From contig DATNLN010000042.1 of the NCBI GenBank assembly GCA_035602855.1, forward strand, positions 14,645 to 78,644: DNA of 64,000 nucleotides, written 5' to 3'. The notes under the pieces are model-generated. The model was given only the letters and a program-made list of their open reading frames with translations. It did not search any database and was not told where the DNA came from. Shown here in pieces: positions 19,358 to 23,666 of the stretch (positions are counted from its first letter, which is position 1; each line of letters opens with the position of its first letter). Origin of the DNA: Candidatus Acidiferrales bacterium (lineage in GTDB: Bacteria > Acidobacteriota > Terriglobia > Acidiferrales > UBA7541). The translations under genes and the position numbers were made by a program.

Positions 19358-21007
19358 CTATGCGGCGCTGGTTACGGCGCCCAGCGATGCCGATGTAACA
19401 AGCTTGGCGTATTTGGCCATCACGCCCGTGGTGTAATTCGGCGCGGGCGCTTTCCACTGCGCGCGGCGCGCTTCCAGATCGGCCGCGACGTCCAGACGCC
19501 GCGCTTTTACATCCAGAGTAATAATGTCGCCATCACGCAACAGCGCAATCGGCCCGCCATTGGCGGCTTCCGGCGCCACGTGGCCCACCATTAGCCCATG
19601 AGTCGCGCCGCTGAAACGCCCGTCGGTGATCAACGCGATCTTGTCGCCAATACCTTGGCCGACCAGCGCGCCGGTGACTGCGAGCATTTCGCGCATGCCC
19701 GGCCCGCCTTTGGGGCCTTCGTAACGAATGACGATCACGTCTCCGGGCTGAATCTGGCGGCCCTGTACCGCTGCGAACGCGGCTTCTTCCGAATCGAACA
19801 CGCGCGCCGGTCCGCTGTGCAACACGCGCTCGTGCCCGGCGAGTTTCACCACGCAGCCTTCCGGCGCAATCGAACCGTGCAAAATCGCCAGGCCGCCGTC
19901 GGCCTTGATAGGCTTTGCGAGCGGCCGCACCACTTCCTGGCCCGCTGTTTCGCTCGCGTCGCTGATTTCTTCGAACAGCTTTCGTCCCGATGCCGTGATC
20001 CCGTCTTTCAGCAGCCCCGCTTCTAGCAAACGCTGCCCAAGCACGCGCATGCCGCCCGCGCGGAACATATCCGGCGCGTTAAATCGCCCCCCAGGTTTCA
20101 AATCCGCCAGCACAGGAGTCTTCGCGGAAATCTCATCGAAATCTTTCAACGCGAGCGGCACCCCCGCGTCGGAGGCAATCGCCAGCAGATGCAGTACGGC
20201 GTTGGTCGAGCCGCCGCTGGAGGCAACTGACGCAATCGCGTTGTGCAGCGATTCCCGCGTAATGATTTGCTTGGGGCGAATGTCGTCCTTCAGCAACTGC
20301 ATCACCAGCTTGCCGCAATCGAACGCCGCCTTGCCCTTGCGCGGATCCGTGGCCGGAATTTCGTTCGCGCCCATCGGCGAAATTCCCAGAAATGTGAGCG
20401 CCATAGCCATCGTGTTCGCAGTAAATTGTCCGCCGCACGCGCCCGCGCCAGGACACGCCACGTCTTCCAGCTCGCCCAGCTGCTTTTCGGTCATTTTGCC
20501 GGCGGCGCAGGCGCCCACTGCTTCGAACACATCCATAATCGTGACTTCGCGCCCCGCAAAATGTCCCGCCAGAATCGAGCCGCCGTACAGCGAAAGGGAA
20601 GGCAGGTTCAGGCGCGCCAGCGCCATCACCGTGCCGGGGATGGTCTTGTCGCAGCCGCAAATCGCCACCACCGCATCGAACGCGTGCGCGCGCACGAAAA
20701 GCTCGATGGAATCGGCTATCACTTCGCGTGAAACCAGCGAAGCCTTCATGCCTTCGGTGCCCATGGTGATGCCGTCGGAAATTGTGATGGTGTCAAACTC
20801 GATGGGCGTGCCACCCGCCGCGCGCACGCCGGCCTTCACGCGCTCGGCCAGTTGCCGCAAATGAAAATTGCAGGGAGTAACTTCGGTCCAGGTATTGGCT
20901 ATGGCCACGAGCGGACGCGCCAAATCGGCGTCGGTGAGGCCGGTGGCCTTCAGCATTGCGCGGGCGGGCGCGCGGGAAATCCCCTTCTTGATGGCATCGC
21001 TTTGCAT
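19358..21007 (-). CDS. ilvD: dihydroxy-acid dehydratase
   Basis: [17 protein letters not shown] motifs. Start set at ATG 21007 ([23 protein letters not shown]), preceded by AAGGAC. The track ORF extends to 21181. Confidence 0.9.
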
Positions 21008-21059
21008 GTTGTCCTTAGTAGTAGGCGTCCGGCAGGGGGATAAGTCCAATTTGTAATTC

Positions 21060-21088
21060 TTGGCAAATTCATAAAAGAAGCTTATATA
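21060..21088 (+). promoter_or_regulatory. sigma70-like promoter P1 (TTGGCA-17-TATATA)
   Basis: Read directly: TTGGCA 21060-21065, 17-nt spacer, TATATA 21083-21088. Confidence 0.4.
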
Positions 21089-21107
21089 TGATTTCTGCAC
21101 GCCGCGC

Positions 21108-21136
21108 TTGACGCTGCCCCCCGGCTTTCGTATAGT
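21108..21136 (+). promoter_or_regulatory. sigma70-like promoter P2 (TTGACG-17-TATAGT)
   Basis: Read directly: TTGACG 21108-21113, 17-nt spacer, TATAGT 21131-21136. The predicted TSS near 21143 would start the leader RNA. Confidence 0.5.
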
Positions 21137-21173
21137 GATGTCTGGTAAGCTTTTAAAAGGACACACAAGGCGC

Positions 21174-21278
21174 GTGGGCAATAAGTTCTATTACCGTTTC
21201 GCTTTTACCAGCCGCTTCCCTTATACCGGGGAGCGGGCCGGCGAGACGCGCGCGGATCAGGTAACACGCAGCAAATAA
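21174..21278 (+). CDS. 34-codon Phe/Tyr-rich leader peptide ORF
   Basis: GTG GGC AAT AAG TTC TAT TAC CGT TTC GCT TTT ACC AGC CGC TTC CCT TAT ... TAA encodes [34 protein letters not shown]. An in-frame ATG at 21138 is an alternative start. Confidence 0.5.
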
Positions 21279-21303
21279 GAACCGCACCAAGTCTTCTAAG
21301 CCG

Positions 21304-21343
21304 GCCGCGACCCCCCAAGGGGAACGCGGCTTTTTTTGTTTTT
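21304..21343 (+). terminator. intrinsic terminator / attenuator hairpin
   Basis: GCCGCG-ACCCCCCAAGGGGAA-CGCGGC (inner CCCC/GGGG pairs) followed by TTTTTTTGTTTTT. It ends 40 nt upstream of the chorismate mutase ATG. Confidence 0.7.
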
Positions 21344-21382
21344 GGCGACATTTTCATCGCGAGGTAAAGGGGGAAAAGCGGG

Positions 21383-21727
21383 ATGAGTGAAATCAAGATT
21401 GGCGATTGGCGCGCGAAAATTGACGCGATTGACACCACTCTGCTGCACCTGCTCAACGTGCGCGCGGGCTTTGCGCTGGAGGTCGGCCGGCTGAAGGGCG
21501 CGCGTGGCATCGCTCTGCGCGTCCCCGCGCGCGAACAGGAAATTCTCGTGCGCATGAAAAAGCTAAACCCAGGGCCGCTCGATAGCGAAGCCGTGGACAA
21601 AATCTACAGTCAAATCTTGCATGAATCCATTCGCATTCAGGCGGACCACGGTTTGGGCTCGACGGAGGTTCCCAAACACGGCAAGACGCGCTTGACGGAA
21701 AAACGCCGCAAGGTGGCGGCAGCATGA
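21383..21727 (+). CDS. chorismate mutase (AroQ class)
   Basis: 114 aa. WRAKIDAIDTTLLHLLNVRAGFALEVGRLK helix typical of AroQ chorismate mutases. Confidence 0.8.
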   Translation: MSEIKIGDWRAKIDAIDTTLLHLLNVRAGFALEVGRLKGARGIALRVPAREQEILVRMKKLNPGPLDSEAVDKIYSQILHESIRIQADHGLGSTEVPKHGKTRLTEKRRKVAAA

Positions 21728-22614
21728 AAAGCGCAGCCACAGCGCGCATCGCGTTTCAAGGTGAACGTGGAGCATTCAGCGAGGAAGCTGCGCTGAAGCT
21801 GCTCGGCGCAGACGTCACGCTGGTGCCGTGCGCAACGTTCGATGCGACGTTTTCCGCCATCAAGAGGCAGGCCGCGGATTACGTGCTCGCGCCGATGGAG
21901 AACAGCCTGGCAGGCTCCGTGCATCGCTCATTCGATCTACTCGTCGAAAGCGGCCTGCACATCGTCGGCGAAGTGATCATCCCGATCGTGCACAACCTGA
22001 TCGGCGTGCCGCGAGCAACGCTTGAGCGCATCGCCTCGGTGGAATCGCATCCCGTGGCGCTTGCACAGTGCGAGCAATTCTTCATCGCGCATCCGCAGCT
22101 GAAACGAATTCCCGCCGAAGACACTGCAGGCAGCGTCCGCGAAGTGATGCGCGCAGCAGATCCCACGCGCGCGGCGATCGCCAGTCGACGCGCCGCAGAG
22201 TTATATGAGGGAGTGATTCTGCTCGAGCATCTGGAAGACGACCGCGAAAATTACACGCGCTTCTTCCTGCTCGCGCCATCCGCCGCGCAGCCACAGGATC
22301 TTGGCGCCGCCTCCGCACCCGATAAAATCTCGCTCGTATTTCAGCTGGCGCACAAACCGGGCGCTCTGCATCACGCTCTTGAGCCTTTCGCCCGCCGCAA
22401 TATCAACATGATGAAAATTGAAAGCCGCCCCGTGCACGGTCGTCCATGGCAATACCGTTTTTATCTCGACCTTCAGGCTGCCGCGAGCGATCCCGAATTT
22501 GCGGCCGCGCTGACCGAACTCGCGCTGCAAGCTGCGGAACTGAAAATTCTTGGCTCGTACAAATCGGCGGAAACTTCGCCGGCCGGTAAATTCGCCTCTG
22601 AGGGGATGCAATGA
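21724..22614 (+). CDS. pheA: prephenate dehydratase with C-terminal ACT domain
   Basis: 296 aa. TRFFLL and ESRP motifs. ATGA overlap with the chorismate mutase gene. Confidence 0.85.
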
Positions 22615-23666
22615 TCATCAACATGGCCGTAAACGCAACGGAAGAGCAGATCGACCACGTCGTGAAACGCATTCAGGAATGCGGTTTTCAAGCGCATCTG
22701 AGCCGCGGGGAGGAACGAGCCGTGATCGGAGTCGTGGGCAAAAGCGAAAAGCATCGCGGAGAACTGGAAGCGCTGCAAGCGGCGCCCGGCGTCGAGGAAA
22801 TCATCCGCATCACGCATCCCTTCAAGCTCGCGTCCAGGAATTTTCGCCCCGAAGGCTCGGTCGTCGAGCTCAGCAAGGACGTTTCCATCGGCGGAACGGA
22901 AATTGTGGCGGCGGCCGGGCCGTGCGCCGTCGAGTCCGCGGCGCAGATCGGCGAGGTCGCGGAAAAAGTGGCGCGTGCCGGCGCAAAACTGCTGCGTGGC
23001 GGCGCTTTCAAGCCGCGCTCGTCACCCTATTCCTTCCAAGGCCTTGGCGAAGAAGGTCTGAAGCTCATGCGCGCCGCCGCCGACGACAACGGCTTGCTCG
23101 TCGTCAGCGAAGTGATGGACCCGTCGCAGATTGAGGTGATGTTGCCTTACGTGGACGTGCTGCAAGTAGGCGCGCGCAATATGCAGAATTATTATCTGCT
23201 GCGCGCTCTCGGCGAAATTCAGAAGCCGGTGCTGCTCAAGCGGGGCATGTCCGCCACCATCGAGGAACTACTGCTCAGCGCCGAGTACATCATGGCTGGT
23301 GGAAACTACAACGTGATTTTGTGCGAGCGCGGCATCCGGACCTTCGATACCTACATGCGCAACACCATGGACATCGCCGCGATTCCGGTGATCAAGCAGC
23401 TTTCGCACCTGCCGGTGGTCGCCGATCCGTCGCACGGCACCGGACGCCGCGACAAAGTCGCTGCCATGGCCCGCGCCGCAGTAGCCGCCGGCGCCGACGG
23501 CCTGCTCATCGAAGTCCATCAAGATCCCGAGCGCGCCCTCTCCGACGGCGCCCAATCCCTCTACCCCGATCAATTCGCACAACTGATGGCCGAAGCAAGG
23601 ATGATCGCTCCAGCCGTAGGCCGCCGCATCGCGGAGGAGAAGGCGCACCAGCGGGCCGCGGTGTGA
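22611..23666 (+). CDS. 3-deoxy-7-phosphoheptulonate (DAHP) synthase, type I-beta with N-terminal ferredoxin-like regulatory domain
   Basis: 351 aa. [13 protein letters not shown] and [10 protein letters not shown] motifs. About 70-aa N-terminal extension like the Thermotoga-type enzyme. Confidence 0.85.

Follow-up and report, generated by a model that had tools for sequence, protein, structure and literature searches.

A classical ribosome-mediated (leader-peptide) transcription attenuator very probably lies upstream of a chorismate mutase / prephenate dehydratase / DAHP synthase operon in a 64,000-nt stretch of contig DATNLN010000042.1, from a Candidatus Acidiferrales bacterium of the phylum Acidobacteriota (assembly GCA_035602855.1; the whole stretch is called the window here, and all coordinates are counted from its first letter). 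The element falls within a 375-nt intergenic region (21008-21382) between two divergent gene sets, and its parts are listed in Table 1. A preliminary description of this DNA had proposed an attenuator at this position, and comparison with relatives supports that reading: a promoter (P2), a short open reading frame (ORF), its Phe and Tyr codons, a covarying terminator, an antiterminator exclusive with that terminator, and a hairpin that overlaps the codons (1:2, formed by RNA segments 1 and 2) are all conserved across Acidobacteriota.

Distribution of the leader and its association with the operon

A protein search with prephenate dehydratase, taking one genome per species, yielded 80 loci, mostly from metagenome-assembled genomes (MAGs) of Acidobacteriota: many are Candidatus Acidiferrales, some Terriglobales or Pyrinomonadaceae, and a few carry other phylum labels. 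In 66 of the 80, a short ORF with the core FAFT[YS]RF stands upstream of a separate chorismate mutase gene. Two alignments were made of these 66 relatives together with the window (67 sequences), one that begins at the promoter and ends at the chorismate mutase ATG (A1), and one that spans the leader start to the T-run of the terminator (A2). The profile of A2 finds exactly one copy of the leader in the window (nhmmer), and matches 190 of 200 sequences from genome and metagenome loci; of the ten that it does not match, one is a truncated locus, and the other nine have prephenate dehydratase but no chorismate mutase gene detected before it. By these comparisons the element is conserved across at least two classes.

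Association with the operon was also approached from the other direction, with a scan of metagenome contigs for a DNA pattern taken from segments 1 and 2 only and blind to the gene downstream. This gave at least 119 matches. Chorismate mutase and then prephenate dehydratase follow the leader in all 114 of the listed matches with enough downstream DNA, which points to an element dedicated to this operon; among the 119 matches listed, none had the leader before another operon. In the window, the end of the T-tract is 39 nt from the chorismate mutase ATG by direct reading of the sequence. A consensus promoter scan predicts no promoter in this gap, and there is no room for one.

A U-rich ORF and a hairpin might have come together in this intergenic region by coincidence, and the unexceptional folding energy of the whole leader (see below) is compatible with that. 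Of the 2,268 short ORFs (10-60 amino acids) in the six frames of the window, however, the leader ORF alone has at least six Phe or Tyr per 13 residues, the element is conserved in those 190 of 200 sequences, and its stems show covariation. On the comparative data, coincidence is effectively refuted, and as an explanation it is hardly credible.

Some loci depart from this arrangement. Several (L059, L062, L064, L065, L067, and L070; also L068, L079, and L080) have a prephenate dehydratase gene with no detected upstream chorismate mutase and no leader; these prephenate dehydratases are 43-66% identical to the window protein. These leaderless loci appear to represent a different gene arrangement, or a paralogue, outside this control. 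The acidobacterial leader and operon are also present in two MAGs labelled as other phyla, L048 (Candidatus Limnocylindrales, Chloroflexota) and L078 (Candidatus Cybelea, Eremiobacterota), and in one MAG (SMAG_U7578; loci L009 and L046) the entire ilvD / leader / chorismate mutase locus occurs twice, in divergent copies; both oddities are likely to stem from mis-binning or mixed bins. In the metagenome contig L163, and similarly in L100, about 220 nt of extra sequence separate the terminator of the leader from chorismate mutase; in L163 these contain repeated GGGGG(C/T)CGGAGCTT motifs and resemble a small inserted repeat element.

The leader ORF and its Phe and Tyr codons

The 34-codon ORF of the preliminary description, with four Phe and three Tyr among 13 consecutive residues, is confirmed by direct reading of the sequence. 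In all 67 aligned leaders there is a start codon in frame with the Phe/Tyr run, at one of two adjacent codons, and it is realised in four ways: GTG, TTG, or ATG at one of them, or ATG at the next. Upstream, an AGGA or GAGG motif recurs 10-13 nt before the GTG in most of the GTG-start leaders; this is a rather long spacing, so that the case for ribosome binding, as far as the sequence goes, is a moderate one. An ATG at 21138-21140, which would extend the window ORF to 46 codons, was rejected as a start: it follows the P2 -10 box by a single nucleotide, is not kept in relatives, and precedes the predicted transcription start. Five loci (L032, L034, L035, L072, and L077) have the -10 box TATAGT only 6 nt before the leader GTG, so that their transcript would start at the GTG or right beside it and be leaderless.

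Conservation of the Phe and Tyr codons, one of the two things that the preliminary description had proposed to check in an alignment of orthologous regions (the other being compensatory changes in the stems, discussed below), is evident in the 67 leaders. The core F-A-F-T-Y/S-R-F is essentially invariant, with Phe at codon 9 in all 67 and at codons 11 and 15 in 66 each, and its variation is confined to the third positions of the Ala10 and Thr12 codons, both four-fold degenerate (entropies of 1.14 and 1.45 bits, respectively, against 0-0.3 for their neighbours). Codon 17 is informative in another way. It is left unpaired, in the loop that closes the 1:2 hairpin, and is nevertheless TAT (37), TTT (15), TTC (6), or TAC (5), thus encoding Phe or Tyr, in 63 of 67 leaders, with a purine in its third position only once (one TTG); the constraint on it is therefore at the level of the codon rather than of pairing. 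Each leader peptide has 5 to 9 Phe or Tyr in 27-34 residues.

After codon 17 the pattern changes. Insertions and deletions shift the reading frame from clade to clade (one version being ...GERAGETRA...), while the nucleotides stay conserved. Whatever the frame, the stop codon falls between RNA segments 2 and 3 in all 67 leaders, 10-17 codons downstream of the Phe/Tyr run. A variable frame with a stop always kept in this interval implies that the sequence of the C-terminal peptide is irrelevant, and that it is the end point of translation that matters. Seven leaders (L027, L038, L045, with ...RFPWWG, L056, L060, L061, and L072) have one or two Trp codons shortly after the run; in most of these the TGG overlaps the GGGG of segment 2, and may be a by-product of pairing rather than a sign of Trp sensing.

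These features bear on whether the ORF is used at all. In a translation-independent RNA switch, the ORF would play no part, and one of the two structures, antiterminator or terminator, would be stabilised by a protein, a small molecule, or a tRNA. Such a switch would account for the conservation of the alternative helices, for the retention of nucleotides but not of reading frame downstream of codon 17, and for the weakness of the ribosome-binding signal. It would not account for an in-frame start kept in every leader by four different means, for an unpaired codon limited to the four Phe and Tyr codons in 63 of 67 cases, for a core that varies only at four-fold-degenerate third positions, or for a stop that always lies in the spacer; moreover, the enrichment in Phe and Tyr matches the products of the operon, and no Rfam family, the T-box included, is recognised at E values up to 10. 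It thus seems quite unlikely. The Rfam result is from a cmscan search of 20800-21600, in which the only match was to BcKCsr2 (E = 0.94, 15 bits against a gathering score of 40); three related loci gave nothing at E values up to 1. The T-box riboswitch, Phe_leader (RF01859), the leu/phe leader, and other known leaders were accordingly set aside for want of any meaningful Rfam match.

The amino acids of the core F-A-F-T-Y/S-R-F are the same in Terriglobia and in Blastocatellia-type leaders, which raises a different question, whether the peptide does something of its own. It might tune stalling within the ribosome exit tunnel, or the peptide or the terminated RNA of about 200 nt might act in trans, making the element a bivalent Phe and Tyr sensor with a second output. 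This seems unlikely: pairing of the core codons within segment 1 is a simpler explanation for much of the core conservation than a separate peptide function. Another reading would make the leader an independent small gene, for a micropeptide or a small RNA of about 200 nt, with its own terminator, the operon being transcribed by constitutive leakage or from another promoter. The invariant core would fit this as well, and there is precedent in Sinorhizobium, where the RNA released at an attenuator, and the leader peptide too, can have a function in trans, as demonstrated for rnTrpL and peTrpL (PMC7298713, PMC7968998). Against it, the second half of the peptide does not keep its reading frame, the 39 nt between T-tract and chorismate mutase have no predicted promoter, the element is directly upstream of chorismate mutase in every one of the 114 listed metagenome matches, and an antiterminator overlapping the terminator would be pointless in a stand-alone gene. 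An independent gene is therefore regarded as highly improbable.

Protein databases have little to say about the peptide. Three divergent leader peptides have no match in Pfam or NCBIfam at E values up to 10, and in a collection of 5.8 billion proteins, queried with a 56-amino-acid extended form of the ORF, the ORF has been called just 5 times, as "hypothetical protein" or unnamed.

Alternative hairpins and the proposed switch

The strong terminator that had been noted upstream of chorismate mutase is borne out. Its hairpin (GGCCGCG-A-CCCC / GGGG-AA-CGCGGCU, -20.4 kcal/mol by ViennaRNA) leads into a T7-G-T5 tract ending 39 nt before the ATG; a simple terminator scan did not report it because of the internal loop. 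In the alignment the T-run is conserved, and the stem is unchanging at its base and covarying in its distal part.

RNAalifold, applied to A2, predicts two structures, the 1:2 hairpin and this terminator, in which segment 3 pairs with segment 4 (3:4). In the window fold the 1:2 hairpin has a predicted energy of -30.8 kcal/mol. If the window RNA is instead folded without segment 4, an antiterminator (2:3) is predicted over 21228-21318 at -39.3 kcal/mol, in which GGGG (21228-21231) pairs with the C-run 21312-21315, GGCCGGC (21236-21242) with GCCGGCC (21300-21306), and GAGAC (21243-21247) with GUCUU (21291-21295). It uses up the 5' arm of the terminator (overlap 21303-21315). The first two pairings had been proposed in the preliminary description, together with an analysis of alternative structures, and both, like the third, are in the predicted minimum-energy fold; the analysis gave the mutually exclusive antiterminator and terminator expected of an attenuator. 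The proposed antiterminator thus exists in the folds, but is larger than had been described, and the 1:2 hairpin had been missed. A further suggested pairing, of CGCGG (21251-21255) with the terminator arm, was not found: the CGCGG is present, but the folds pair it with CCGC (21282-21285) in a hairpin within the spacer.

Both structures are kept in the relatives. Counted in all 67 sequences, pairing in the antiterminator amounts to 87.6%, compared with 32-46% when the 3' partners are slid by 1-3 columns, and pairing in the terminated fold to 88.8%, compared with 44-56% when slid. Compensatory changes can be seen in each helix type: pair 93:153 of the GAGAC:GUCUU helix is GC in 40 sequences, AU in 15, and GU in 12; pair 61:72 of the 1:2 hairpin is CG in 37, UG in 17, and UA in 12; and pair 182:195 of the terminator distal stem is UA in 24, CG in 23, and UG in 17. 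Column 72, in segment 2, covaries with both of its alternative partners, 61 in segment 1 and 182 in segment 3, and the four columns 61, 72, 182, and 195, one from each of segments 1-4, change in concert, so that 61 of 67 sequences preserve every one of the three alternative pairings. Even the leaders furthest from the window (L058, L060, L073, and L074, from Pyrinomonadaceae and similar) retain the 1:2, 2:3, and 3:4 pairings with different helix sequences.

The position of a ribosome on the leader would decide between these structures, to judge from refolding with the ribosome-covered part removed. RNA free from 21222, 21228, or 21234 onward is predicted to form the antiterminator, leaving of the terminator a short hairpin apart from the U-tract, while RNA free only from 21240 is predicted to form the full terminator. 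This outcome fits the placement of all the Phe and Tyr codons at codons 5-17, with none later.

A classical attenuation cycle can be proposed on this basis. Transcription would begin at P2, with a start near 21143 inferred from the promoter. A ribosome would initiate at the GTG at 21174, and would have seven Phe or Tyr codons to read within codons 5-17. With charged tRNA-Phe or tRNA-Tyr scarce, it would stall over segment 1 (21194-21220), so that segment 2 (21228-21247) could pair with segment 3 (21291-21315); this would tie up the terminator's 5' arm, and RNA polymerase would read through into the operon. With Phe and Tyr plentiful, the ribosome would reach the stop at 21276, the 1:2 hairpin would re-form behind it, the 3:4 hairpin would form, and transcription would terminate at the T-tract (21331-21343). 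An untranslated leader would have the same outcome, termination.

The codon content suggests that Phe and Tyr would be sensed jointly. Conservation is strictest for the Phe codons, so the main signal is probably Phe, with Tyr as the second. Joint sensing would suit an operon that mixes enzymes of the common pathway (DAHP synthase and chorismate mutase) with one of the Phe branch (prephenate dehydratase).

Several points weigh against this attenuation model. Leader transcription, translation of the ORF, ribosome stalling, and the response to Phe and Tyr are all inferred steps. The ribosome-binding signal is weak or oddly spaced, with AGGA at 10-13 nt and AAGG at 3 nt, and the clade of the window starts with GTG. 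The core is U-rich and partly paired, so that constraints on the RNA could account for part of its conservation. Covariation rests on a modest number of pairs, because many positions in the helices never change and the sequences are akin, and this kinship also inflates the counts. The folding energy of the whole leader is no better than that of shuffled sequence (z = -1.1); stability alone is uninformative here, and the support is comparative. Finally, the ORF crosses segment 2 and ends in the spacer, and the termination step therefore assumes rapid re-formation of the 1:2 hairpin once the ribosome has left, an assumption that would at the same time explain why the position and frame of the stop vary freely.

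Table 1. Coordinates of the candidate attenuator and of neighbouring features in the window
Feature	Position	Strand	Details
Promoter P2	21108-21136	+	-35 TTGACG (21108-21113), 17-nt spacer, -10 TATAGT (21131-21136)
Shine-Dalgarno-like purine-rich stretch	21156-21170	+	AAAGGA (21156-21161), 12 nt before GTG; AAGG (21167-21170), 3 nt before GTG
Leader ORF	21174-21278	+	34 codons; GTG start at 21174, TAA stop at 21276-21278
Putative regulatory codon run	21186-21224	+	Codons 5-17; 4 Phe and 3 Tyr
RNA segment 1	21194-21220	+	5' arm of 1:2 hairpin, overlapping codons 7-16; RNAalifold consensus
RNA segment 2	21228-21255	+	Pairs with segment 1, or via 21228-21247 with segment 3
RNA segment 3	21291-21315	+	Pairs with segment 2 (antiterminator) or segment 4 (terminator)
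Predicted intrinsic terminator	21303-21343	+	Hairpin 21303-21331; T7-G-T5 tract 21331-21343
Operon proposed to be regulated	21383-23666	+	Pfam matches
Chorismate mutase	21383-21727	+	Pfam match; first gene of the operon, ATG at 21383
Prephenate dehydratase with ACT domain	21724-22614	+	Pfam match
DAHP synthase with N-terminal ferredoxin-like domain	22611-23666	+	Pfam match
P1 of the preliminary description	21060-21088	+	TTGGCA (21060-21065), 17-nt spacer, TATATA (21083-21088)
Conserved block containing P1	21040-21090		Alignment of relatives
ilvD	19358-21007	-	Followed by ilvC and the large acetolactate synthase subunit

Relation to known attenuators

The closest known counterpart is the E. coli and gammaproteobacterial pheL-pheA attenuator (RF01859), which likewise has a short Phe-rich leader ORF before a chorismate mutase / prephenate dehydratase function, and likewise combines 1:2, 2:3, and 3:4 alternative hairpins with an intrinsic terminator. 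In E. coli PheL, Ala, Thr, and Pro codons are interspersed among the Phe codons, a mix that the acidobacterial F-A-F-T-x-R-F-P resembles. The differences are nonetheless considerable. The acidobacterial leader has 27-34 codons, where pheL has about 15; it mixes Phe and Tyr, where pheL has a pure Phe run; its ORF continues through segment 2, with a stop after it; it precedes separate chorismate mutase and prephenate dehydratase genes, together with DAHP synthase; and it belongs to a different phylum, with no match to RF01859 at E values up to 10. As described in the literature, the pheL peptide has about 15 residues, a run of Phe codons only, and a stop soon after the run, and is found almost exclusively in Gammaproteobacteria, apart from a few candidates in Bacteroides and Desulfobacterium (PMC3082878).

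The logic of the E. coli trp attenuator (trpL) is also shared, in that stalling in segment 1 frees segment 2 for segment 3 and blocks 3:4 pairing, but the amino acid sensed is different. The trpL stop lies just before segment 2, while that of the acidobacterial leader comes after it, in a position and frame that vary with clade. Multivalent attenuators are known as well: that of the thr operon senses Thr and Ile, and that of ilvGMEDA senses Ile, Leu, and Val. The acidobacterial leader resembles these in having codons for more than one amino acid, but differs from them in the amino acids, the operon, and the phylum.

Outside Proteobacteria, leader-peptide attenuators have been predicted by comparative genomics in Actinobacteria, for trp, cys, and branched-chain genes (PMC1262725), and in Firmicutes, for hisS (PMC2965389). 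The present element was found in the same manner; none of those predictions concerns Phe or Tyr biosynthesis, and in the Actinobacteria survey the Phe and Tyr operons came out without any upstream RNA element (PMC1262725). A 2010 survey remarked that hardly any of the attenuators predicted in Acidobacteria had been given a function (PMC2965389). The preliminary description knew of no leader-peptide attenuation in acidobacterial aromatic operons, and full-text literature searches on leader peptides and attenuation in Acidobacteria or Acidobacteriota gave no description of this element.

The element is thus a previously unannotated and well-conserved attenuator, as read here, in a phylum without assigned ones, though of a class already known. 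Acidobacteriota are abundant in soil and hard to culture, and to our knowledge next to nothing has been established about their gene regulation. For aromatic amino-acid synthesis in this group, the model would offer a concrete regulatory mechanism. It would also extend leader-peptide attenuation of Phe synthesis beyond Gammaproteobacteria (PMC3082878). The alignment could seed an Rfam family, and would correct the "hypothetical protein" annotations of the leader ORF.

Promoters and the ilvD side of the intergenic region

Two near-consensus promoters, P1 and P2, had been assigned to the leader in the preliminary description. Both sequences are present where described, but only P2 stands as a leader promoter: it has 10 of 12 consensus matches in a consensus promoter scan, and its TTGAC...TATAGT is near-invariant in the 67 sequences of A1. 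The -10 box of P1 is TATATG, TATAGC, or TATACG in most relatives, so that the TAnnnT form is not kept, and the block around it is best assigned to the ilvD side; P1 was rejected as a second leader promoter on these grounds.

The block itself (GATAAGTCCAATTTGTAATTCTTGGCAAATTCATAAA...GCTTATAT), which includes P1, is very strongly conserved. On the ilvD strand it contains a promoter-like TTGACT in relatives, where this precedes the second leader described below; in the window the corresponding letters are TTGGAC. The block probably serves the divergent ilvD, as its promoter or control region, and is not a second promoter for the leader; it may hold the promoter of ilvD, or a site for a regulator shared by both sides, some 45 nt before the -35 box of P2.

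Where the intergenic region of a relative is longer (525-760 nt), there is also a candidate leader-peptide attenuator on the other strand, upstream of ilvD (L014, L019, L024, L026, L032, L037, L042, L048, L063, and others). Its short ORF is rich in Ile, Val, and Leu, with a conserved end, G-P-P-[A/V]-stop (examples are MKKVFNILVVVIIGCGPPA and MTQVIRRPVVVIVRWGPPV), and in the inspected loci is followed by a hairpin (CGCCCCGCACC...GGTGxCGGGGC) with a T-run; the distance from there to the ilvD ATG, where measured, is about 30-75 nt. This leader has no Rfam match. It is absent from 21008-21060 of the window, whose clade appears to have lost it. The ilvD-side ORF is found in 30 of 52 intergenic regions, and a strict hairpin-plus-T-run pattern in 15 of them. 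An Ile/Leu/Val leader next to ilvD, in addition to a Phe/Tyr leader on the opposite side, suggests that classical attenuation is in regular use in Acidobacteriota.

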